Assembly (NCBI GenBank): GCA_045807285.1
Contig: JBJMHR010000029.1
Span: 81,020 to 145,019, forward strand
Direction of reading: 5' to 3'
Length of the DNA: 64,000 nucleotides
Source of the DNA: Actinomycetes bacterium
Lineage (GTDB): Bacteria; Actinomycetota; Actinomycetes; JAWWOW01
A program made the position numbers and the translations under genes. The notes beneath the pieces were generated by a model. It saw only the letters and a list, made by a program, of their open reading frames with translations, did no database searches and was not told where the DNA came from. Below, piece after piece: positions 8,324 to 64,000 of this stretch (its first letter is position 1; the number at the start of each line of letters is the position of its first letter).

Positions 8324-8396
8324 TAGCCTCGACGGGATTTGAACCCGCGCTACCGCCTTGAGAGGGCGGCGTCCTGGGCCGCTAGACGACGAGGCC
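8324..8396 (-). tRNA. tRNA-Glu (anticodon CUC)
   Basis: The reverse complement GGCCTCGTCGTCTAGCGGCCCAGGACGCCGCCCTCTCAAGGCGGTAGCGCGGGTTCAAATCCCGTCGAGGCTA folds as a cloverleaf. Anticodon stem CCGCC/GGCGG, loop CTCTCAA, T-loop TTCAAAT. CCA is not encoded. Confidence 0.9.
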
Positions 8397-8420: not shown

Positions 8421-8492
8421 CTGGGGTACCAGGACTCGAACCTAGACTAGCTGAACCAGAATCAGCCGGGCTGCCAATTACCCCATACCCCA
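8421..8492 (-). tRNA. tRNA-Gln (anticodon CUG)
   Basis: The reverse complement TGGGGTATGGGGTAATTGGCAGCCCGGCTGATTCTGGTTCAGCTAGTCTAGGTTCGAGTCCTGGTACCCCAG folds as a cloverleaf. Anticodon stem GCTGA/TCAGC, loop TTCTGGT, T-loop TTCGAGT. CCA is not encoded. Confidence 0.9.
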
Positions 8493-8513: not shown

Positions 8514-9956
8514 TTAGCGCAGCGCCGCCTCCAGTCGCGCCACCGAACGCTCCTTCCCGAGCAGCTCGAGCGACTCGAACAACGGCGGTGACACGGTCCT
8601 TCCCGTAACAGCGACCCGGACGGGCCCGAACGCGTTCTTGGGCTTCAGCCCGAGCCCGTCTACCAGCGTGGCCCGGAGCGCCGCCTCGATCACCTCGGTG
8701 CGCCAGTCCCCCACGTCCGTGAGCGCTTTCCGCGCCGCATCGACCACCGGCAGCTGATCCGGACCGAGTTGCTTCGCGGCCGCGTCGGGATCGAGGTCGA
8801 CCGAGTCGCCGAACAGGAACGCCATCATCCCGACTGCTTCCGAGAGCAATCCGATCCGCTCCTGCACGAGTGGCGTCGCTCGATGCACCATCGACCGGTC
8901 TTCGTCGGTCACCGGTTCCGGTACGACGTCGGCCAAAACCAAGTACGGCAGGATCCGCTCCGCGATCTCCTCCGTTGGCATCTCGCGGATGTAGTGACCG
9001 TTCAACCAGTGCAACTTGTCGAGGTCGAACACCGGCCCGACAGTGTTCACCCGCGTCCAGTCGAAGGTGGACACCATCTCGTCGAACGAGAACACCTCCT
9101 GCCCGTCCGGCATCGAGTAACCCATCAACGCGAGGAAGTTGCGCAAGGCCTCCGGCAGATACCCCTCTTCGCGAAACCACGTCAGACGCGCCGCCGGGTT
9201 CTTTCGCTTCGAGATCTTCGACTTGTCGACGTTGCGCAGCAGCGGCATGTGCGCGAACGCCGGCCGCTCCCACCCGAGCCAGTCATAGAGCAGCAGATGC
9301 TTCGGTGTGGACGAGATCCACTCCTCGCCACGCACGACGTGCGTGATGGCCATCTCGTGGTCATCGACCACGACCGCCAAGTGGTACGTCGGAAAGCCGT
9401 CCGCCTTCATGATCACCTGGTCGTCGGGCCTCGGCGCGTGCACCTCGCCGCGGATCACGTCCACAAACGCCAGCGGCGGATCAGCAGGAATCAGCATCCG
9501 CACCACAGGCGTTTCCGAAAACCCCGGCAACGCCGAGCGCTCCTCGCTCGTCTTGCCATAACACAACCGGTCGTAACCCGTCGGCTGCTTCGCCTTCTGT
9601 TGCGCGGCGCGCATCTCCGCCAAGCGCTCCGGCGTACACCAGCAGTGGTAGGCATGACCGTCGTCGAGCAGTCGCTGTGCCACCGGTTGGTAGGTGCCTA
9701 ACCGCTCGGACTGCCGGTACGGCGCATAGGGACCACCGCGATCCGGCCCCTCGTCCCAGTCGAGTCCCAACCAGAGCAACGTGTCGTAGACCTGCTGCTC
9801 GCTGTCCGCGACGTAGCGCGCCCGGTCGGTGTCCTCCACGCGCAGAACGAATTCGCCACCTTGCTGCCGCACGAAGGCAAGGTTGAAGAGCGACATGTAC
9901 GCCGTACCCACGTGGGGGTCGCCCGTCGGAGACGGCGCGACGCGGAGCCGGACCAC
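8514..9956 (-). CDS. gltX: Glutamyl-tRNA synthetase
   Basis: 480 aa with the HIGH motif (PSPTGDPHVGTAY) and the KMSKS variant (SKISKRKN). GTG start overlaps the stop of the upstream FAH gene by 1 nt. Confidence 0.95.
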   Translation of the reverse strand: MVRLRVAPSPTGDPHVGTAYMSLFNLAFVRQQGGEFVLRVEDTDRARYVADSEQQVYDTLLWLGLDWDEGPDRGGPYAPYRQSERLGTYQPVAQRLLDDGHAYHCWCTPERLAEMRAAQQKAKQPTGYDRLCYGKTSEERSALPGFSETPVVRMLIPADPPLAFVDVIRGEVHAPRPDDQVIMKADGFPTYHLAVVVDDHEMAITHVVRGEEWISSTPKHLLLYDWLGWERPAFAHMPLLRNVDKSKISKRKNPAARLTWFREEGYLPEALRNFLALMGYSMPDGQEVFSFDEMVSTFDWTRVNTVGPVFDLDKLHWLNGHYIREMPTEEIAERILPYLVLADVVPEPVTDEDRSMVHRATPLVQERIGLLSEAVGMMAFLFGDSVDLDPDAAAKQLGPDQLPVVDAARKALTDVGDWRTEVIEAALRATLVDGLGLKPKNAFGPVRVAVTGRTVSPPLFESLELLGKERSVARLEAALR

Positions 9957-10717
9957 TACGCGCGCTCGCGCACGACGTTCGTGAGCGATCCGATGCCGGA
10001 GATCGCGACGGTCACCTCGTCGCCGACGTCGATCGGCCCGACGCCCGCCGGCGTACCCGTCATCAACACGTCACCGGGCAACAACGTCATGACCGCAGTG
10101 ATGTGCGCGATCACTTTCGGGATGTCGTGAATCAGCTGCGACGTACGCGCCGACTGCTTCACCTCACCGTTGACGGTGGTTGTCAACTCGAGATCCGACG
10201 GGTCCAGCTCGGTCTCGATCCACGGGCCGAGAGGGCAGAACGTGTCATAACCCTTCGCCCGCGACCACTGCCCGTCGGCCCGCTGCTGCTCGCGCGCCGT
10301 CACGTCGTTGCCGCACGTGTAACCCAGCACGACGTCGTACGCCCGCTCTGGCGGCACGTCCCGACACACCTTGCCGATAACGACCACGAGCTCACCCTCG
10401 AAGTCGACGCGGCCGACCGATCCCGGCCGAGCGATCGGGTCACCGGGGCCGATTACCGCACTCGACGGCTTCAGGAAGATCAGCGGCTCGGCCGGCGCCT
10501 CGCCGCCCATTTCCGCAGCGTGCTCGGCGTAGTTTTTGCCGATCGCGACGATCTTCGTCGGCAGGATCGGTGCAAGCAGCCGTACGTCGGCGAGTGCATG
10601 ACGCACACCCGTCAATGTGAATGCGCCGATCGGGTGGCCGTCTATCTGCGTGATCACATCGCCGTCGACAACGCCGTACGCCGGGTCGGCCCCGGCCGTG
10701 AACCTTGCAATCCGCAT
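9956..10717 (-). CDS. Fumarylacetoacetate hydrolase (FAH) family protein
   Basis: Start set at the internal ATG (MRIARFTAGADPAYGVV, 10715-10717). FAH-family blocks are present (IVAIGKNYAEHA, DFEGELVVVIGK, GDVLMTGTPAGVG). Same position as Rv2993c. Confidence 0.85.
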   Translation of the reverse strand: MRIARFTAGADPAYGVVDGDVITQIDGHPIGAFTLTGVRHALADVRLLAPILPTKIVAIGKNYAEHAAEMGGEAPAEPLIFLKPSSAVIGPGDPIARPGSVGRVDFEGELVVVIGKVCRDVPPERAYDVVLGYTCGNDVTAREQQRADGQWSRAKGYDTFCPLGPWIETELDPSDLELTTTVNGEVKQSARTSQLIHDIPKVIAHITAVMTLLPGDVLMTGTPAGVGPIDVGDEVTVAISGIGSLTNVVRERA

Positions 10718-10808
10718 CGGTTCCGAGCGTATCGGTAGGGTTCGCCGCGTGACCGAAGCATCTGACGTCCCCACTCCGGAGCCGGCGCCTGTCGACGAAG
10801 AAAACGCG

Positions 10809-10994
10809 ATGAAGCTCCAACATCTCGTCGAGGACTCGATCCTCAAGGCGCATCCGTACGGCGAAGAGCACTGCCGCAACTGCCTGTACTACCTCGACAT
10901 CGACAGCGATTTCTCCTATTGCTGGCACCCGAAGGTGCGCATCCTGGTGGACCAGAACTGGTGGTGCCAGTGGTGGGAGGAGCAGGACAGCTAG
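10809..10994 (+). CDS. Small HiPIP-like 4-cysteine protein, putative [4Fe-4S], no signal peptide
   Basis: MKLQHLVEDSILKAHPYGEEHCRNCLYYLDIDSDFSYCWHPKVRILVDQNWWCQWWEEQDS. The Cys pattern EEHCxNCxxY...YCxxxP...WWCxxW parallels the high-potential iron-sulfur protein signature (e.g. EEQHCANCQF...GCQLFPGK...GWCASW). An alternative GTG start lies at 10749. Confidence 0.5.
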   Translation: MKLQHLVEDSILKAHPYGEEHCRNCLYYLDIDSDFSYCWHPKVRILVDQNWWCQWWEEQDS

Positions 10995-11012
10995 CGCCGT
11001 ACCCTCGCCTCC

Positions 11013-11423
11013 GTGGCGACGTGGCGAGATGTGCAACGACTAGCCGCGGCGCTGCCGGAGACGAGCGAGCGCGTCCGTGACGACGGTCAGCACCAGTGGC
11101 GCGTCAAAGACAACATGTTCGCCTGGGAACGACCGCTAGGCCGAAGCGACCTCGACGCCCTGGGCGACGGCGCCCCGCGTGGAGCGATCCTCGCGGTCCG
11201 GGTCACCGACCTGGACGCGAAGGACGCCATCCTCGCCGAACAACCTGAGGTCTACTTCACGACGCCGCACTTCAACGGCTACGCCGCAGTGCTGGTCCGG
11301 CTCGGCAAGATCAAGATTGCCGACCTGCGCGAACTGCTCACCGACGCGTGGCTAGCCCGAGCTCCGAAGCGGCTTGTCACGGAGCACGTCGCTGACCTTC
11401 GTCCGAAGCAAGGTCACGGGTAG
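11013..11423 (+). CDS. MmcQ/YjbR-family protein
   Basis: 136 aa, GTG start. The pattern WRDVQRLAAALPETSE...WRVKDNMFAW is typical of the YjbR/MmcQ fold family. Call rests on recalled family consensus only. Confidence 0.5.
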   Translation: MATWRDVQRLAAALPETSERVRDDGQHQWRVKDNMFAWERPLGRSDLDALGDGAPRGAILAVRVTDLDAKDAILAEQPEVYFTTPHFNGYAAVLVRLGKIKIADLRELLTDAWLARAPKRLVTEHVADLRPKQGHG

Positions 11424-12016
11424 GGGCGGTAGTCGCAGCTGAACATGGCCGGCTTGTTCAGCGTGACGCTGCCGTTCTCCCACGCGTATGCGCCTGCAAG
11501 TGGTTTCCAGTTCGTGCCGTCCTTGCTTGCCTCGAACTGGAAGCCGACAGCCGAGCCGAGTCCGTACATCGTGTTCCCGTCGATCTCCGTCTCGCCATCT
11601 CCGATGAGGTCCGCGACCACCTTGTCCGGGTTCCATACAGAGTTCGACGGCCCGATGCCGTGCCGCTGGTAGACGAGGTGGTCGATCTGCCACTTGCCGG
11701 TGCTCGGGTTGTACGAGCCGGTCTCCTCGAAGTGGCGTAGCAGGTAGTTCAGCCGCACGTACTTCCACGCCGTCTGGCCGTTCTCGACCACCTTGAAGTC
11801 CCACATCGGCGAGAACCAGGCGTCCGGTCCGGTGTCGTCGTTGATGTCGGTGACGTTGACACAGCCGAATGTGTAAGACAGCGTCAAGCCGCTGATCGTG
11901 ATCGTGCCACCGCGCGTGTGATTGACCGTGGACGTGCCTGCGCGCGCCGACGAGGCGAGCAGCAACCCCCCGATGGTTGTGATGGCGACCGACGCGAGTG
12001 CGATTCTCCGCTTCAT
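11414..12016 (-). CDS. Secreted protein of unknown function
   Basis: Start set at MKRRIALASVAITTIGGLLLASSARA (signal peptide with an A-x-A site). The mature part is about 175 aa, has two Cys, and resembles no family I recognise. Its 3' end overlaps the convergent yjbR-like gene by 10 nt. Confidence 0.55.
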   Translation of the reverse strand: MKRRIALASVAITTIGGLLLASSARAGTSTVNHTRGGTITISGLTLSYTFGCVNVTDINDDTGPDAWFSPMWDFKVVENGQTAWKYVRLNYLLRHFEETGSYNPSTGKWQIDHLVYQRHGIGPSNSVWNPDKVVADLIGDGETEIDGNTMYGLGSAVGFQFEASKDGTNWKPLAGAYAWENGSVTLNKPAMFSCDYRPYP

Positions 12017-12110
12017 GACACGGACCCCCATCTCGGCAGCGAACGGTGGCTCCGTAACGAGACCACAAGAAAGCCGACATGTGCCTACTGAAAATGTCGT
12101 AGGACGAGCG

Positions 12111-13679
12111 CTACGAACGGGCCAGACCGTAGGTCACCGCGTCGACGAGGGCGTCCCACGACGCAGCGATGACGTTCTCGTTCACACCGACGGTCGACCA
12201 TTCGCGCTCGCCATCACTGGTCTCGACGAGCACCCGGGTGACGGCGCCGGTGCCGTGCGCACCCTCAAGGATCCGCACCTTGTAGTCGACGAGCTCCAGC
12301 GTGGCGAGCTCGGGGTAGAGCCGCTCGAGCGCTTGCCGCAACGCGCGGTCGAGCGCGTTGACCGGTCCATTTCCTTCGCCGGTCTCGACGATGCGCTTGT
12401 CCCGCGCGTGCAGCTTGACCGTCGCTTCACAGGCGTGGCTGCCATCGCCGCGCTGCTCGACGATTACTCGCCACGACTCGACGTCGAAAAACGTCGTCTT
12501 CTCCCCCGCGACCTCGTCGCGCAACAACAGCTCGAAGGACGCGTCTGCGGCCTCGAAGCTGTACCCGCGCGCTTCCAGATCCTTCACCCGGTCGACGACC
12601 CGACCGAGCAGCGCATTGTCGCCGGACAGGTCGAGTCCGAGCTCGCGACCCTTGAGCTCGATGCTCGCCCGCCCGGCCATCTCGCTGACCAGCGTGCGCA
12701 TGTCGTTGCCGACCGCACCGGGATCGATGTGCTGATAGAGATCGGGATCGACCCGCACCCCGGACGCGTGCAGTCCGGCCTTGTGCGCGAACGCGCTCGC
12801 GCCGACGTAGGGCTGATGCGGATCCGGGTTGATGTTCGCGACCTCCGCGACGGCGTGCGCGACGCGGCCGAGCTCACTCAGCCGGCCGTCCGGCAGCACC
12901 GAGCGGCCGAGCTTCTGCTCGAGGTTGGCGACGACGGCGAAGAGGTCGGCGTTGCCGCATCGCTCGCCGTACCCGTTCGCCGTGCCTTGCACATGTGTGA
13001 CGCCTGCGCCCACGGCAGCGAGGGTGTTGGCCACCGCACACGCCGCATCGTTGTGGCAGTGGATGCCGAGCCGGGCTCTGGTGCCGGTCAGCACGTCGTT
13101 CACGACGCCCGCGAGCTGCCCGGGCAGCATGCCGCCGTTGGTGTCGCACAGCACCACGACATCGGCACCGGACTCGGCCGCGACAGTGACGAACTCCCTT
13201 GCGTACGCCGGGTCAGCGGCGTAACCGTCGAAGAAGTGCTCGGCGTCGACGAAGACGCGCTGCCCCTCCGCACGCAGATGCGTGATCGTGTCCCGGAGCA
13301 TGTCGAGGTTCTCCTCGAGCGTCGTACGCAGAGCCCGCACCACATGGTCGACATGTGACTTCGCCACGAGGCACACGACGGGGGCACCCGACTCGCGGAG
13401 CGCAGCAACGAGCGGGTCATCCGCAGCCCGTGACCCCGGTCGCCTGGTCGCACCGAAGGCCGCGAGCTGCGCCGTCTGCAGGCTGAGCTCGGTCTGCGCA
13501 CGCCGGAAGAACTCGGTGTCCTTCGGGTTGGCACCCGGCCAACCACCCTCGATGAAACCGACGCCGAGTTCGTCGAGGTGGCGCGCGATCAGCAGCTTGT
13601 CCAGGACGGACAGCGAAAGACCCTCCCGCTGCGCGCCGTCACGCAGCGTCGTGTCGTAGACGTGGAACTGGTCGTTCAT
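12111..13679 (-). CDS. cimA: (R)-citramalate synthase (LeuA-family, CimA type)
   Basis: Start at ATG 13677-13679 ([20 protein letters not shown]), preceded by GGTGAGG. HMGL-like domain motifs are present ([20 protein letters not shown]) plus a LeuA-dimer regulatory domain. It is distinct from the bona fide leuA at 26634. An Ile-codon leader lies upstream (see findings). Confidence 0.75.
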
Positions 13680-13691
13680 CCTCACCCCAAC

Positions 13692-13721
13692 AAAAAACCC
13701 CTCGTGCCAGGCACGGAGGGG
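13692..13721 (-). terminator. Intrinsic terminator/attenuator hairpin in the cimA 5' leader
   Basis: RNA strand: CCCCUCCGUGCCUGGCACGAGGGG followed by UUUUUU. Stems are 6 bp plus 4 bp with one bulged C. It ends 12 nt before the cimA start codon. Confidence 0.7.
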
Positions 13722-13751
13722 TGGGGCGCGGGCCGCAGCAGCGGAACGCGC

Positions 13752-13778
13752 CTATCCGATGATGATCTCCTTGATCAC
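13752..13778 (-). promoter_or_regulatory. Isoleucine-codon leader peptide ORF of the cimA attenuator
   Basis: GTG ATC AAG GAG ATC ATC ATC GGA TAG encodes (M)IKEIIIG. In-frame upstream starts also exist (TTG 13814, GTG 13823, ATG 13868), giving up to ...VTVVHVIKEIIIG. The stop lies 30 nt upstream of the terminator stem. Confidence 0.55.
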
Positions 13779-13866
13779 GTGTACGACGGTGACATCCAGT
13801 CCCGCCGGTGTCAACCTCGCCACCCGCTGGTAGACAATCCGGGCACCACTGCTGCGGAGGCCATCC

Positions 13867-15855
13867 ATGACGTACTTCGTGACCGGGGCTACCGGGTTCA
13901 TCGGCCGCCATCTCGTTGAGCGCCTGCTCGAGCGCGACGGGGACGTGCACGTCCTCGTACGCGAGACCTCGCGGCAGCGTCTCAACGACCTGATCGAACG
14001 CTGGGGCGCAGCGGCCCGGGTGCAGCCCGTCGTCGGTGATCTCGACAAGCCGTTGCTGGGCCTGACCGAGGCCGACGTCGCGCGGCTACGCGGGCAAGTG
14101 CGGCACTTCTTCCATCTGGCCGCGATCTACGACATGACCGCAGACGACGAGCGCAACCGGGTGCTCAACGTCGAGGGCACCCGGCATGCCGTCGATCTCG
14201 CCAACGCGCTCGACGTCGGTTGCCTACATCACGTGTCTTCCATCGCAGCTGCCGGCGAGTACAAGGGCCTGTTCCGCGAGGACATGTTCGACGAAGGGCA
14301 GAAGCTGCCGTCGCCCTACCACCGGACAAAGTTCGAGTCCGAGCGTCTGGTCCGCGACCGGGCGACGGTGCCCTGGCGGGTCTACCGTCCAGCCGTCGTG
14401 GTTGGGCATTCGCAGAGCGGCGAGATGGACAAGGTCGACGGGCCCTACTACTTCTTCAAGGCGATCCAGCGCGCCCGTCACTACCTGCCGGAGTGGTTCC
14501 CGCTCGTCGGTCCCGAGATGGGCTGGACGAACATCGTCCCGGTCGACTACGTCGCCGCTGCGATGGACCACATCGCGCACAGCGACGGCCTCGACCGACA
14601 GGCCTTCCATCTGACCGCGCCGAAATCGCAACGGTCCGGCGACGTGATCAACGCGTTCGCCCGCGCCGCGCACGCACCGCAGCTGCAGATGCGGATCGAC
14701 AAGAAGCTGACCGACGCTCTGCCCAAGGGTGTCGTGTCGATGTTGATGCAGCTGCCCGCGCTGAAGGACATCCGCAAGCAGTTTCTCGCCGACCTCGGCA
14801 TACCGGAAGAGGTCATCCGGCACATCGCACTGATCCCGCAGTTCGACACTCGCGACACCGAGCGCGCCCTCAAGGGTTCCGGCATCGAGGTACCGCCCCT
14901 CGACGACTACTCGCACCGGTTGTGGGACTACTGGGAGCGCAACCTCGACCCCGACCTGTTCAAGGACCGCTCACTCGGCGCCGCGTTGCGCGGCAAGACC
15001 GTGGTCATCACGGGCGCGTCGTCCGGTATCGGGCGTGCGGTGGCCCTGAAGGTCGCCGTGGCCGGCGGCGTGCCGCTGCTCGTCGCACGTGGCGCGGACA
15101 AGCTGGAAGAGCTGCGGCAGGAGATCGCCGACCTCGGCGGTACGGCATACGTCTATCCGACCGACCTGACCGACATGGACGCGATCGGCGCGCTCGTCGA
15201 CAAGCTGCTCGCCGACCATCCGGCGGTCGACTTTCTCGTGAATAACGCGGGACGGTCGATCCGGCGATCGGTCAAGTTGTCCTACGACCGGTTCCACGAC
15301 TTCGAGCGCACCATGCAGCTCAACTATTTCGGCGCCATCCGCCTGATCCTCGGACTGCTGCCACATATGTCGGAGAAGAAGGGCGGACACGTCGTCAACG
15401 TGTCCTCCATCGGCGTACAGACGAACCCGCCACGGTTCTCGGCCTACGTCGCGAGCAAGGCGGCGCTCGACGCGTTCACGCGCATCGTCGCGACCGAGAC
15501 GGTGGGCGACAACGTGACGTTCACGACCGTGCACATGCCGTTGGTGCGCACCCCGATGATTGCGCCGACGAAGATCTATGACTCGTTCCCGACGATCACG
15601 CCGGACGAGGCCGCCGACATGATCACCGACGCGCTGCGGACGAAGCCAAAGCATGTCGGAACCCGGCTCGGCACTTTCGGTGAAGTCGCCTACGCACTCG
15701 CACCCAAAGCGGTCGACCAGGTGCTGCACATGGCCTACAAGGTCTTCCCGGACTCCTCAGCGGCCAAGGGCGACAAGTCTGCAGCGACCGAGGACGAGAA
15801 GGCCTCCGGCGAAGCCGTCGCGTTGGCGCACCTCATGAGAGGCGTGCATTGGTGA
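13867..15855 (+). CDS. Two-domain fatty acyl-CoA/ACP reductase (N-terminal NAD-binding 'male sterility' reductase domain plus C-terminal classical SDR domain)
   Basis: 662 aa. N-terminal VTGATGFIGRHL. Second Rossmann motif ITGASSGIGRAVA, NNAG, and catalytic YVASKAAL. Same architecture and length as the alcohol-forming FARs Maqu_2507 and Rv3391 (recalled). Confidence 0.85.
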   Translation: MTYFVTGATGFIGRHLVERLLERDGDVHVLVRETSRQRLNDLIERWGAAARVQPVVGDLDKPLLGLTEADVARLRGQVRHFFHLAAIYDMTADDERNRVLNVEGTRHAVDLANALDVGCLHHVSSIAAAGEYKGLFREDMFDEGQKLPSPYHRTKFESERLVRDRATVPWRVYRPAVVVGHSQSGEMDKVDGPYYFFKAIQRARHYLPEWFPLVGPEMGWTNIVPVDYVAAAMDHIAHSDGLDRQAFHLTAPKSQRSGDVINAFARAAHAPQLQMRIDKKLTDALPKGVVSMLMQLPALKDIRKQFLADLGIPEEVIRHIALIPQFDTRDTERALKGSGIEVPPLDDYSHRLWDYWERNLDPDLFKDRSLGAALRGKTVVITGASSGIGRAVALKVAVAGGVPLLVARGADKLEELRQEIADLGGTAYVYPTDLTDMDAIGALVDKLLADHPAVDFLVNNAGRSIRRSVKLSYDRFHDFERTMQLNYFGAIRLILGLLPHMSEKKGGHVVNVSSIGVQTNPPRFSAYVASKAALDAFTRIVATETVGDNVTFTTVHMPLVRTPMIAPTKIYDSFPTITPDEAADMITDALRTKPKHVGTRLGTFGEVAYALAPKAVDQVLHMAYKVFPDSSAAKGDKSAATEDEKASGEAVALAHLMRGVHW

Positions 15856-15859
15856 TTGA

Positions 15860-16741
15860 TTGCGCGACGAAGCGGTGACCGGGCCTCGGCTGCCGACGTT
15901 CCTCATCATTGGCGCACAGAAGGCCGCGACCACGAGCCTCTGGTCAGCGATCCGTCGGCACGAGCAGGTCTACTGCCCACCGAACAAGGAGCCGCGGTTC
16001 TTCTCGCCGGGCGCACCGATGGATCGCGGCAAGGAGTGGTACGCAAGCCTGTTCGCGGCCGCCGGCGACGCAGTGGCGATCGGCGAGGCATCCACGACGT
16101 ACACCTGGTACCCGCTGCACGGACATGTCCCCGAGCGCATCCTCGCGATGCTGCCGGACGCGCGGTTCGTCTACGTGCTCCGCGACCCGGTCGAGCGGAT
16201 GCGATCGGCGTACCTGCATGCAGTCTCGCTCGGAGTCGAAACGTTCCACATCGGACGTGCCCTGCTCTGGCAGAGCCAGTACCTCTACCCGAGCATGTAC
16301 GCGATGCAGATCGAGCAATATCTCCAGTACGTCGATCGCTCGCGGCTGCTGCTCGTCAGCACCAGGGACTTTCGCAAGAACCGCGACGAGACGTTACGCC
16401 GGGTGTTCACGTTCATCGGTGTCCATCCGGAGCTGCCGCTTGCACCGGGCTCGGAGCAGGACGTGAACGTCGGATCGGACCGGCGAGCGCCGCGTGCCGG
16501 GTCATTGTGGGCAACCCGAATGATGCGCGAAGGTCCGCTGCGCCGCGTCGTACCGCCACGCTGGCAGTTCCAAGCACGACAGCATCCGTTGCTGACCAAA
16601 CCGATCCCCGAGCACGACACGAAGGTGCATCCGGAAACGCGGGCCCGGCTTCTCGACGTGCTCCGCCCCGACATCGCGCGCTTGCGCGAGCAGGCGGCCG
16701 GTGAGATCTCGGCCGCCGAGCTCGACGAGTGGGAGACCTAG
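15860..16741 (+). CDS. PAPS-dependent sulfotransferase family protein
   Basis: 293 aa. 5'-PSB loop FLIIGAQKAATTSL, KEPRFF, and 3'-PB motif VLRDPVERMRSAY. Starts (TTG 15860 or GTG 15875) 4-19 nt after the FAR stop. Confidence 0.85.
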   Translation: MRDEAVTGPRLPTFLIIGAQKAATTSLWSAIRRHEQVYCPPNKEPRFFSPGAPMDRGKEWYASLFAAAGDAVAIGEASTTYTWYPLHGHVPERILAMLPDARFVYVLRDPVERMRSAYLHAVSLGVETFHIGRALLWQSQYLYPSMYAMQIEQYLQYVDRSRLLLVSTRDFRKNRDETLRRVFTFIGVHPELPLAPGSEQDVNVGSDRRAPRAGSLWATRMMREGPLRRVVPPRWQFQARQHPLLTKPIPEHDTKVHPETRARLLDVLRPDIARLREQAAGEISAAELDEWET

Positions 16742-16769
16742 CACCGCGGAGGCAGACCTGCTGACACGA

Positions 16770-17357
16770 ATGGCAATGCAGAGCGCGCTCGACGAGTTCG
16801 TGCGCCTGGAACTGTCGCGACCGGAGCTGCGTGCTGCTGCGGTTGCGATCTGCGTTGTCATGGCCGCGGATGAGCCCGCCTTCCTGCTGACCCGACGCTC
16901 GACCAAGCTACGAGCGCACCGAGGTCAGTGGGCGCTACCCGGCGGAAGTCTCGACGCCGGCGAGACTGCAGCCGATGCCGCGCTGCGTGAGCTGCGCGAA
17001 GAAGTCGGGCTGGACCTCGATGCCTCCGCTGTGCTGGGGCTGCTCGATGACTACGCGACCCGGTCGGGCTTCGTGATCACGCCGGTGGTCGTGTGGGCAG
17101 GCGTTCTGGAGGGCGAGCTCACGCCGCACGCGCCGGAAGTTGCCGAGCTCTACGTCGTACCGCTTGCCGAGATTGACGTCGAGCCGCGGTTTCACGCGAT
17201 TCCGGAGTCCGACGCTCCGGTCATCCAGCTACCACTGTTCGGGCGGTTCGTGCACGCGCCAACGGCCGCCGTGCTCCACCAGTTCCGCGAGCTGGCCTTG
17301 CGCGGCCGTACGACGCGGGTCGCGCACTTCGAGCAGCCGGTGTTCGCGTGGCGCTGA
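16770..17357 (+). CDS. Nudix hydrolase, CoA pyrophosphatase subtype
   Basis: Start set at ATG 16770 (MAMQSALDEF). Nudix box GSLDAGETAADAALRELREEVGL, preceded by the CoA-type NuCoA motif LLTRRSTKLRAHRGQWALPGG (LLTxR[SA]x3Rx3Gx3[FL]PGG). Confidence 0.8.
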   Translation: MAMQSALDEFVRLELSRPELRAAAVAICVVMAADEPAFLLTRRSTKLRAHRGQWALPGGSLDAGETAADAALRELREEVGLDLDASAVLGLLDDYATRSGFVITPVVVWAGVLEGELTPHAPEVAELYVVPLAEIDVEPRFHAIPESDAPVIQLPLFGRFVHAPTAAVLHQFRELALRGRTTRVAHFEQPVFAWR

Positions 17358-17373
17358 ATGCGCCGTCATTCCG

Positions 17374-18300
17374 CTAGTCGCGGACGTATTCGTTCCAGCT
17401 GTTGTACTTGGCGATCTGGCCAGTGGTCGCCTTGCCGAAGATGTCAAGCAGGTGACGCGTCACGGAGCCGGGCTTGCCTTCGCCGACCCGACGGTCGTCG
17501 ACCTCGACGATCGGCACCACCTCGGCCGCCGTGCCGGTGAGGAACGCCTCGTCGGCGAGGTAGAGGTCGGAGCGCACCATCGTCGCCTCGACGACCTGGT
17601 ACCCCTCGTCCTCCGCGATCGTCATGATCGACTGCCGGGTGAGGCCGGCCAGCACACCGTCGACGAGCGGCGGTGTCACAAGCTTCTTGCCGAAGACACA
17701 GAAGACGTTCTCGCCGGAGCCTTCGGCCACGTTGCCGCCGGGCGTCAGCATGATGCACTCGTCGTAGCCCGCCTTCATAGCGGCGACCTTCGCGAGTGAC
17801 GAGTTGATGTACTGCCCGGTGGCCTTGCCTGCGGGCGGGATGGTGTTCTGGCCGATCCGTTCCCACGACGAGACATGCACGCGTACGCCGGTCTCGGCGG
17901 CGTCGTCACCGAGGTAGGCGCCCCACGGCCAGCACGCGATCGCAGCGCGCGTCTTCGACGGCAGCGGGTTGAGGCCCATCTCGCCATACCCGAGGTAGAA
18001 CAACGGCCGGATGTAGCAGGACTCGACGTCGTTGACGCGCACCGTCAACTTGGTGGCATCGACGACCTGCTCGACCGTGAACTCCGGCTCCATCATGTAG
18101 ATGTGCGCCGAGCGGAACAGCCGCTCGATGTGCTCGGTCAGCCGGAAGACCGCCGGCCCGCGATCGGTCGCGTAGGCACGGATGCCCTCGAAGACACCCC
18201 AGCCGTAGTGCAGCGTCGGTGTGAGCACGTGCACGTTGGCGTCGTCCCACGCGACCAGCTCGCCGTCCATCCAGATCTGCCGCGTGGGCGTGATGGGCAT
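17374..18300 (-). CDS. ilvE: Branched-chain amino acid aminotransferase (fold-type IV)
   Basis: 308 aa with typical IlvE blocks: IWMDGELVAWDDANVHVLTPTLHYGWGVFEGIRAY and the EGSGENVF motif. Confidence 0.9.
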   Translation of the reverse strand: MPITPTRQIWMDGELVAWDDANVHVLTPTLHYGWGVFEGIRAYATDRGPAVFRLTEHIERLFRSAHIYMMEPEFTVEQVVDATKLTVRVNDVESCYIRPLFYLGYGEMGLNPLPSKTRAAIACWPWGAYLGDDAAETGVRVHVSSWERIGQNTIPPAGKATGQYINSSLAKVAAMKAGYDECIMLTPGGNVAEGSGENVFCVFGKKLVTPPLVDGVLAGLTRQSIMTIAEDEGYQVVEATMVRSDLYLADEAFLTGTAAEVVPIVEVDDRRVGEGKPGSVTRHLLDIFGKATTGQIAKYNSWNEYVRD

Positions 18301-62912: not shown

Positions 62913-64000
62913 ATGAGACTGCGCGAGGCGTTGTCCGGCAAGCGAATTCTGCTGACCGGCGTGACCGGCTTCCTGGGTGAAGCGCTTCTCGAGCGTTTGT
63001 TGTCCGACGTACCCGACACGCAACTCGTCCTGCTCATCCGCAGCCGGCCGTCCCAGACCGCCGACGATCGCGTCACTGAACTCCTCACGCGTCCCGCATT
63101 CCGCGCGCTGCGCGAGGTGCATGGCGAGGACGGCGTGGCGCGGATGCGCGCTGAACGCGTGACCGTCCTCGACGGCAGCCTTGAACTCGTCCCGGCGTTG
63201 CCCGCGGACCTCGACGTTGTCGTCCACTGCGCCGGCGACGTGTCCTTCGACCCGCCGATCGACGTAGCGATGGCCACGAACCTGCTCGGGACGGTCCGGC
63301 TGCTCGAGGCCGTGCACGCGGCCGGCGGCAACGCGCATTTCGTCTACGTGTCGACGGCCTACGTCGCCGGGCTGCGCCGCGGACCGGTGCCCGAATCCCG
63401 GCTGTTGCTCAACGTGGACTGGCGGACCGAGGTCGACGCGGCGGAACGCTTGCGTCACGACATCGAAGCCGCGTCGCGCACACCGGACGTCCTACGCAAG
63501 CTCCGGCGCGAGGCAGAGGTCGAGCACCGCCGAGCCGGGCCCTCCACCGTCTCCGCCGATGTCGAGGTACGCCGCCGCGACTGGGTGCAACGCGAGCTCG
63601 TCGATGCCGGGCGCGAGCGGGCCAGGTCGCTCGGCTTCGCCGATGTCTACACGTTGTCGAAGGCACTCACGGAATGCGCGGTCGAAGAGGCGGCCGCTGA
63701 CCTGCCGCTCACCGTCGTTCGGCCCTCGATCATCGAGAGCGCGCTGCGCCGGCCCTACCCGGGCTGGATCGAGGGCTTCAAGATGGCCGAGCCGATCATC
63801 CTCGCCTACGGACGCGGCGAGCTCCCGGAGTTCCCGGCCGTGCCCGATGGTGTTCTCGACGTCATCCCTGTCGACCTCGTGGTCGGCGCGATCCTGGCGG
63901 TTAGCGCGCAGGAGAGGAAGGCCGGAGCACCGGAGTACTTCCACGTCTCGTCCGGCGCGCGCAACGCGCTCGGCTTCCACCGGCTCTACGAGCTCGTCCG
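62913..64000 (+). CDS. Fatty acyl-CoA reductase-like / thioester reductase (NAD_binding_4 'male sterility' domain), 3'-truncated by window end
   Basis: Not in the track because it is open at the edge. ATG 62913. Translation MRLREALSGKRILLTGVTGFLGEALLERLL..., STAYVAG, and catalytic YTLSKALTE. 25 nt downstream of the GT4 gene. Confidence 0.75.
   Translation, partial: MRLREALSGKRILLTGVTGFLGEALLERLLSDVPDTQLVLLIRSRPSQTADDRVTELLTRPAFRALREVHGEDGVARMRAERVTVLDGSLELVPALPADLDVVVHCAGDVSFDPPIDVAMATNLLGTVRLLEAVHAAGGNAHFVYVSTAYVAGLRRGPVPESRLLLNVDWRTEVDAAERLRHDIEAASRTPDVLRKLRREAEVEHRRAGPSTVSADVEVRRRDWVQRELVDAGRERARSLGFADVYTLSKALTECAVEEAAADLPLTVVRPSIIESALRRPYPGWIEGFKMAEPIILAYGRGELPEFPAVPDGVLDVIPVDLVVGAILAVSAQERKAGAPEYFHVSSGARNALGFHRLYELV

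Follow-up and report, generated by a model that had tools for sequence, protein, structure and literature searches.

We analysed a stretch of 64,000 nucleotides (nt) from contig JBJMHR010000029.1 of an Actinomycetes bacterium (assembly GCA_045807285.1), referred to below as the window. It carries three co-directional genes that encode a fatty acyl-CoA reductase (FAR) and a sulfotransferase (ST) of the type that uses 3'-phosphoadenosine 5'-phosphosulfate (PAPS), as well as a Nudix hydrolase (Table 1). A preliminary description, made from the letters of the window alone, had placed these genes as one tightly spaced unit between cimA and ilvE. Positions, spacing, common direction and place between the two neighbours were all confirmed from the open reading frames (ORFs). 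The TGA stop codon of FAR occupies 15853-15855, which leaves a gap of 4 nt to the ST if translation begins at its TTG codon and of 19 nt if it begins at the GTG codon. The ST stop codon lies at 16739-16741 and is followed by GGAGG at 16748-16752, within a spacer of 28 nt that reaches up to the Nudix ATG. It is uncertain where Nudix starts: its reading frame opens at 16701 and contains CTG codons at 16758 and 16761 ahead of the ATG. A GGAGG ribosome-binding site stands 7 nt upstream of the FAR ATG. Scanning for terminator-like sites found none between the three genes. Since cimA and ilvE lie on the opposite strand at either side, FAR, ST and Nudix make up a self-contained co-directional unit. 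Short spacers, no terminator-like site in between and flanking genes on the other strand are indirect evidence that the three are co-transcribed.

Table 1. Features of the FAR-ST-Nudix unit and its surroundings (positions are those of the window)
Feature	Position	Strand	Remarks
FAR	13867-15855	+	ORF, 662 amino acids (aa)
ST (ST-1), PAPS-type sulfotransferase	15860-16741	+	ORF, 293 aa, TTG start; alternative GTG at 15875
Nudix, NuCoA-type (putative CoA/acyl-CoA diphosphatase)	16770-17357	+	ATG at 16770
cimA (citramalate/2-isopropylmalate synthase family)	12111-13685	-	Left boundary, divergent from FAR
ilvE (class IV branched-chain aminotransferase)	17374-18300	-	Right boundary, convergent with Nudix
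Divergent intergenic region	13686-13866		cimA promoter and attenuator-like Ile leader (-); conserved block and FAR GGAGG (+)
Weak terminator-like hairpin	17370-17384	+	Directly after the Nudix stop, within the 3' end of the convergent ilvE
tRNA genes	8324-8396 and 8421-8492	-	Downstream of gltX; Rfam 60.9 and 55.6 bits

The three encoded enzymes

The FAR protein had been described as a two-domain reductase of the alcohol-forming type, and its domains, a full-length family match and the motifs of both domains agree with this. An N-terminal NAD_binding_4 domain (PF07993) covers residues 5-233 (1.3e-48), and a C-terminal adh_short domain (PF00106), that of a classical short-chain dehydrogenase/reductase (SDR), covers residues 377-566 (1.7e-48). 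The first domain carries GATGFIG at residue 7 and YHRTK at 151; the second carries TGASSGIG at 382, NNAG at 459 and the S513...Y527VASK arrangement at 513-531. Residues 1-662 match positions 1-657 of the NCBIfam model NF005539 (PRK07201) with 1003 bits at a cut-off of 549, and we take the known reductases FCR1, FcrA and Maqu_2507 to fall within this model.

Judged from its sequence, FAR is a two-domain fatty acyl-CoA reductase of the type of these three enzymes. FCR1 of Mycobacterium tuberculosis (Rv3391, AcrA1) has 650 aa and two domains, yields fatty aldehyde as well as alcohol from acyl-CoA, and shares 40% identity with Maqu_2507 of Marinobacter (PMC3522743). Maqu_2507 and FcrA of Rhodococcus jostii (664 aa) produce alcohols for wax esters (PMC8401914), and for all three enzymes the reduction of acyl-CoA to alcohol depends on NADPH (PMC3522743, PMC8401914). 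The window FAR is alike in length (662 aa against 650-664 aa) and in the order of NAD_binding_4 and SDR domain. The termini of Rv3391, as read from its cloning primers (PMC3522743), are MRYVVTG... and ...GVHW-stop, and those of the window FAR are MTYFVTG... and ...GVHW-stop. The likeness lies in architecture, length and termini. FCR1, FcrA and Maqu_2507 are not reported beside a Nudix or ST gene, whereas the window FAR is the first gene of an operon that contains a CoA-type Nudix gene, to which an ST gene is added in some genomes.

The ST matches the Pfam families Sulfotransfer_3 and Sulfotransfer_1. Both cofactor-binding motifs named in the preliminary description could be read directly and are intact. 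The 5'-phosphosulfate-binding (PSB) loop GAQKAATTSL spans residues 18-27, and in an alignment of 37 sequences G18 and T24 are invariant and K21 is conserved in at least 90%. The 3'-phosphate-binding (3'-PB) motif RDPVERMRS (RxPxxRxxS) spans residues 108-116, with R108, P110 and R113 invariant and S116 conserved in at least 90%. E76 is also invariant in the family and aligns with the Glu of MEKTPSY in 3-OST-3 (PDB 1t8t), which we take to be the catalytic base.

An AlphaFold model built on 37 homologues reached a pLDDT of 92.4 and a pTM of 0.90. In a PDB sequence search the best match was 3rnl, an uncharacterised ST of Alicyclobacillus (7.4e-21), and 3-OST-3 followed at 1e-10. With Foldseek the E-value was 1.1e-13 for 3rnl and ranged from 1e-11 to 1e-8 for NDST1 and the 3-OSTs. 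The PDB sequence search found no SULT at E<=1, and among the fold matches SULT2A1 and SULT1C2 come no higher than 37th, with E-values of about 3e-4 to 2e-3 and query-normalised TM-scores of 0.35-0.46. The earlier assignment to the cytosolic SULT type was therefore not borne out, as 3rnl, NDST and 3-OST are nearest by both sequence and fold. The ST is soluble and belongs to the 3-OST/NDST-like branch. It has the PSB-loop Lys, the Arg and Ser of the 3'-PB motif and the Glu of EKTPSY in common with 3-OST, NDST and 3rnl, but identity to them is just 16-22% and query-normalised TM-scores are 0.62-0.66. The 3-OST and NDST enzymes act on polysaccharides; this likeness is not decisive for the acceptor of the window ST.

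The Nudix protein matches PF00293, and its best PDB match is the CoA pyrophosphatase 1nqy of Deinococcus (8.7e-26); NUDT7 matches too. The Nudix box GSLDAGETAADAALRELREEVGL (GX5EX7REUXEEXGU) is complete. Upstream of it the CoA-specific NuCoA motif, which had been claimed for this protein, could be read directly as LLTRRSTKLRAHRGQWALPGG, with Leu replacing the Phe of LLTxR[SA]x3Rx3Gx3FPGG. Motif and box are the same and intact, respectively, in six of six loci of the clade described below. Against the NudL equivalog model NF007980 the protein scored 88 bits, below the cut-off of 134, so it is not a NudL equivalog. We regard it as a putative CoA/acyl-CoA diphosphatase. Nudix box and NuCoA motif are held in common with DR1184 of D. 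radiodurans, NudL of E. coli and mammalian NUDT7. A point of difference is the position directly downstream of a FAR gene, which is specific to this clade. The protein has many close relatives.

A constant FAR-Nudix core with a variable sulfotransferase

Through the contigs of Nudix relatives we reached five further loci (L166, L167, L174, L175 and L176) that are syntenic with the window and come with it from one clade of uncultured actinomycetes. The common order is cimA(-), FAR(+) and the genes that follow it, and ilvE(-), with identities of 89-92% for cimA, 90-94% for FAR (L166, L175 and L176) and 83-93% for ilvE. In L166, L175 and L176 the cimA gene has HMGL-like, HCS_D2 and LeuA_dimer domains, and the ilvE orthologues have an Aminotran_4 domain.

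All five loci with both ends visible (L166, L167, L175, L176 and the window) contain FAR and Nudix. What differs is the ST. In L166, L167 and L176 the pair stands without one, and Nudix starts about 8-50 nt after the FAR stop. The window has the order FAR-ST-Nudix, and junction alignments showed that ST-1 occupies exactly the spacer that parts FAR from Nudix in the ST-less relatives. The 1.2-kb contig L174 holds an ST-Nudix junction, with an ST 66% and a Nudix 78% identical to those of the window; its 5' end is truncated and FAR is out of view. In L175 the order is FAR-Nudix-ST, and this second ST (ST-2, 271 aa, motifs intact) is 39-41% identical to the window ST. Our comparison shows that FAR-Nudix is the constant core and that the ST is an accessory module.

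The two STs belong to different lineages of the family. In a neighbour-joining tree the STs of the window and L174 pair, and ST-2 falls on another branch. ST-2 has close homologues of its own (P0242-P0245) at 87, 83, 71 and 61% identity. A single ST that moved within the operon is ruled out, with ST-1 and ST-2 39% identical and each nearer to other family members (45-48%). Apart from the ST, the L175 locus is 78-94% identical to the window. Window and L175 group by FAR (94%) and ilvE (93%), by which L175 is the closest relative of the window, and the ST-less L166 and L176 group together (ilvE 92.5%). One sub-lineage thus carries an ST in its FAR-Nudix operon, but paralogue and slot differ.

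For the ST pair of window and L174, dN/dS is 0.27 at a dS of about 1. The GC content at third codon positions (GC3) of the window ST is 0.83, compared with 0.79-0.92 in the neighbouring genes. Taken together, these values indicate that the gene is old, ameliorated and under purifying selection. Recent foreign insertion of the ST is ruled out by the same figures and by its GC content of 0.664, which fits that of the neighbours. Complete conserved residues, the high-confidence model and purifying selection likewise rule out a pseudogene. In L167 (7930-9920) a frameshift splits the FAR orthologue into two ORFs, of 249 aa and 388 aa; either an error of assembly or a pseudogene could account for this.

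Surroundings of the operon

The divergent region between cimA and FAR was aligned across five syntenic loci. On the cimA side, the 5' leader (13778-13686, minus strand) contains an eight-codon ORF, GTG ATC AAG GAG ATC ATC ATC GGA TAG (13778-13752), whose three Ile codons, Gly codon and stop do not vary among the five loci. A GC-rich segment comes next, and then, just ahead of the cimA start, a terminator-like hairpin at 13715-13703 with a T run. The arrangement resembles an attenuator of citramalate synthase that works through an isoleucine leader peptide. Rfam gave no match at this leader. A conserved TTGACA stands at 13814-13809 on the minus strand. On the FAR side, the 24-nt block CCGCTGGTAGACAATCCGGGCACC (13822-13845, plus strand) is nearly invariant in the five loci and lies about 20-45 nt before the FAR start codon, with the cimA promoter on one side and the FAR ribosome-binding site on the other. 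This block may be a FAR promoter or operator. A sigma-70 promoter scan gave 0 matches and is uninformative in DNA of such high GC content. The number of terminator-like sites was not above the expectation from shuffled sequences, so the hairpin behind Nudix counts as weak evidence for a transcript end.

The stretch between a FAH-family gene (9956-10720) and cimA varies among close relatives. At 10900-12100 the window has a YjbR-like gene and a gene for a 205-aa protein without a Pfam match, whose hydrophobic N-terminus, judged by eye, is a possible signal peptide. In this stretch L166 (1576-5874) holds a PKD/fn3 protein of 1333 aa, and L167 (4367-6000) and L175 (2320-2900) hold small ORFs. These differences between relatives mark the neighbourhood of the operon as a flexible region.

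The remaining annotated genes of the window are ordinary core genes. Besides leuCD-like aconitase-family genes, they include gltX, leuB, serA, ilvC, ilvN, ilvB, gatB, gatA, ligA, mnmA, iscS, etfAB and glycogen/MGLP-type genes. Between 8500 and 63000 the order is gltX, FAH-like, leuB, serA, ilvC, ilvN, ilvB, gatB, gatA, ligA and mnmA, then iscS, etfB, etfA, methyltransferase, GH57 and GT4. We believe that this order mirrors the Rv2992c-Rv3032 region of M. tuberculosis, which would point to the class Actinomycetes. In contrast, the closest FARs in GTDB genomes are from Solirubrobacterales, and the set of species-representative genomes seems to lack the lineage of the window. Across the whole window Rfam found only the two tRNAs.

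Two further genes had been linked to fatty alcohols in the preliminary description. The second FAR-like gene (62913-64000, plus strand) was confirmed by an NAD_binding_4 domain at 2.2e-47; it encodes a FAR or thioester-reductase-like protein and runs off the right end of the window. At the left end, 179-1 on the minus strand covers codons 1-59 of a gene; its product begins with MVQKHLDRLSSVDAGFLHAEDG..., an N-terminus that looks like those of WS/DGAT wax synthases.

A candidate route to alkyl sulfates

In the chemistry proposed here, FAR would use NADPH to reduce long-chain acyl-CoA, forming free CoA and a primary fatty alcohol. The ST, where present, would transfer sulfate from PAPS onto this alcohol or a close derivative and release alkyl sulfate and 3'-phosphoadenosine 5'-phosphate (PAP, or 3',5'-ADP). 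Nudix would cleave CoA or acyl-CoA to 3',5'-ADP and (acyl-)4'-phosphopantetheine and so trim the pool of CoA thioesters that feeds FAR. The chemistry, from acyl-CoA to alcohol to alkyl sulfate, is one that we purely infer. To the reading that the accessory ST O-sulfates the FAR-derived fatty alcohol we assign a probability of roughly 0.45. An alcohol made by FAR is the simplest chemical link between the two enzymes. The preliminary description had also drawn attention to PAP as a product common to ST and Nudix. This is chemically true, but nothing was found that points to a functional role.

Two observations speak for a functional link. The ST-Nudix junction recurs in a second organism (L174) under purifying selection, and a divergent second ST stands at another position of the same operon in the closest relative of the window (L175). 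Chance insertion explains the pattern poorly, because it would require that, in sister genomes, the same 3-kb operon received two different members of one family of modest size, and that one of the two was then kept for a dS of about 1. Repeated recruitment of an ST fits better, as does an ancestral order FAR-ST1-Nudix-ST2 from which the STs were lost differentially. Both histories imply that selection has favoured the expression of an ST along with the FAR-Nudix operon. More specifically, these uncultured actinomycetes, which come from soil, may make long-chain alkyl sulfates, as anionic surfactants similar to SDS or as envelope lipids, by a dedicated FAR and ST module that arose at least twice when different STs joined a FAR-Nudix operon; in this fuller form we hold the idea a little more tentatively.

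Several results weigh against sulfation of the FAR alcohol. The main rival reading is an ST that is unrelated to FAR and sulfates a carbohydrate, a glycolipid or another acceptor, as seems to be the case for its relatives, having lodged in a permissive, well-expressed operon within a variable stretch of the chromosome. The solved structures closest to the ST, by fold as well, include carbohydrate sulfotransferases of the NDST and 3-OST type. Close relatives of the ST are few: among 5.8 billion protein clusters we found one fragment at 66% identity and then none above 48%. An exact-sequence look-up of the window ST gave no record. We surveyed homologues with 27-49% identity at 85 places, namely 80 metagenome loci and five contigs (about 82 independent places, as one is a paralogue cluster). 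Neither FAR nor Nudix was found in any of the 85, although about half of the contigs are shorter than 4 kb and provide a weak test. Where the context is readable, the relatives lie in tandem paralogues or in glycan-type clusters with GT4, GH113, DegT, PglD-like and sugar epimerase genes. In P0007 the neighbours are GH113 and GT4 genes, and in P0021 (L170:955-7864) three STs lie amid DegT aminotransferases, PglD-like acetyltransferases, GT4 genes and a sugar epimerase. The ST of P0020 (L172:284-7840) is near GT2, GT4, methyltransferases and lasso-peptide-like genes (PqqD, Asn_synthase, NTP_transf_5), and in P0003 two tandem STs adjoin an Iso_dh gene. The relatives of the ST speak for sugar acceptors no less than for alcohols. 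A plasmid collection gave distant matches only (<=32% identity, mostly Sinorhizobium and Phaeobacter), which are uninformative.

The distribution around FAR adds to these points. We examined the 80 best FAR loci (64-74% identity, +/-10 kb) in GTDB species-representative genomes, a set that did not contain the window's own clade, by tblastn with 14 window proteins and the L175 ST up to E<=10. All 80 are from Solirubrobacterales or other Thermoleophilia-type metagenome-assembled genomes. None has an ST or CoA-Nudix homologue near FAR, nor a cimA, ilvE or leuB homologue within the same distance; even at E<=10 FAR itself was the sole match, and the trio is thus not a general property of two-domain FARs. 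Within the clade, three of the six loci have FAR-Nudix without an ST or an ST remnant, so the core works without it. On co-conservation of the trio, whose lack the preliminary description had named as grounds for refutation, the result is mixed: an ST is present in half of the clade loci, in two arrangements, and the trio does not recur in the surveys outside the clade. Furthermore, none of the 47 window genes annotated directly or through L166 orthologues is a PAPS-synthesis gene, a sulfatase or an exporter. The flexible stretch left of cimA also suits an ST that has lodged there without a link to FAR. On the other hand, two ST lineages at two positions of the same 3-kb operon in sister genomes are hard to obtain by chance, since STs make up a small share of genes, and ST-1 has been kept beside Nudix across a dS of about 1 under purifying selection. 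We consider an unrelated acceptor unlikely on balance, though it deserves to be taken seriously.

The ST might instead be a partner of Nudix rather than of FAR, with Nudix acting on PAPS or a related 3'-phospho-ADP compound and thereby tuning sulfation, or with both enzymes balancing the pools of PAP and CoA. Both enzymes would handle 3'-phosphoadenosine nucleotides, CoA and PAPS have a 3'-phosphoadenosine 5'-phosphate core in common, and the ST directly adjoins Nudix in three of three ST-bearing loci. This adjacency carries little information, because any gene inserted in so small an operon touches either Nudix or FAR. The NuCoA motif and the best PDB match indicate CoA as the substrate, PAP lacks a pyrophosphate bond that a Nudix enzyme could cut, and Nudix is a widespread housekeeping-type gene that in Pseudonocardia thermophila lies away from any ST. 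Such a partnership seems improbable to us. We give even less credit to sulfation as an activation step, in which the alkyl sulfate would be an intermediate whose sulfate acts as the leaving group in an elimination or alkyl transfer. The ST domain of curacin and olefin synthases sulfates a hydroxyl ahead of decarboxylative elimination, and the CurM and olefin-synthase ST domains are among the structural neighbours of our ST model (4gbm at 2.1e-06, 4gox at 8e-05). This reading would also agree with the finding that none of the annotated window genes is an exporter suited to a detergent-like product. However, these structural matches are much weaker than those to 3rnl, NDST and 3-OST, and the operon has no thioesterase, alkyltransferase or other follow-up enzyme. 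Sulfation of the FAR alcohol remains the reading that we prefer.

To our knowledge, the bacterial sulfolipids described so far have trehalose, glycopeptidolipid, menaquinone or sterol acceptors. The preliminary description knew of no bacterial alkyl-sulfate pathway coupled to a FAR, and our search of the full-text literature likewise found no precedent. In that literature, long-chain fatty alcohols are sulfated by PAPS-dependent STs in only one biosynthetic system, that of Entamoeba histolytica, where EhSULTs form fatty alcohol disulfates from alcohols that derive from fatty acids (PMC6801973). Entamoeba is a eukaryote, its products are disulfates of omega-hydroxylated alcohols, its alcohol-forming enzyme is unidentified with no FAR encoded, and the genes are unclustered (PMC6801973). 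Sulfated fatty alcohols occur in marine invertebrates as well as in Entamoeba, and the alcohol-forming step is unidentified in both (PMC6801973). Among bacteria, BT_0416 of Bacteroides thetaiotaomicron is a PAPS-dependent ST that O-sulfates cholesterol (PMC9417993). It resembles the role proposed here in that a lipid alcohol is O-sulfated, but its acceptor is a host sterol and not a self-made fatty alcohol (PMC9417993). It adjoins the PAPS-synthesis genes BT_0411-0415, of which no counterpart was found among the annotated window genes, and it was chosen by its similarity to human SULT2 (PMC9417993), whereas the window ST is nearest to 3rnl, NDST and 3-OST.

Our data indicate a clade-restricted FAR-Nudix operon that has been supplied twice with an accessory ST, and they make it a credible but unproven candidate for fatty-alcohol sulfation in bacteria. 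Each enzyme belongs to a known family; the novelty lies in their combination and its evolutionary pattern, and the product is a candidate. If the ST acts on a sugar instead, the finding would come down to a common kind of accessory gene that has settled in a lipid operon. The comparative pattern is useful in itself, as a constant core is joined by an accessory enzyme from two different paralogues, and the clade supplies natural variants with and without the ST for comparison. If sulfation of the alcohol is true, it would be the first pathway in bacteria for the sulfation of fatty alcohols and the first genetic linkage of alcohol-forming and sulfating enzymes. The FAR-ST module would then be a simple two-enzyme route from acyl-CoA to alkyl sulfate, relevant to the envelope biology of actinomycetes and to bio-based surfactants.

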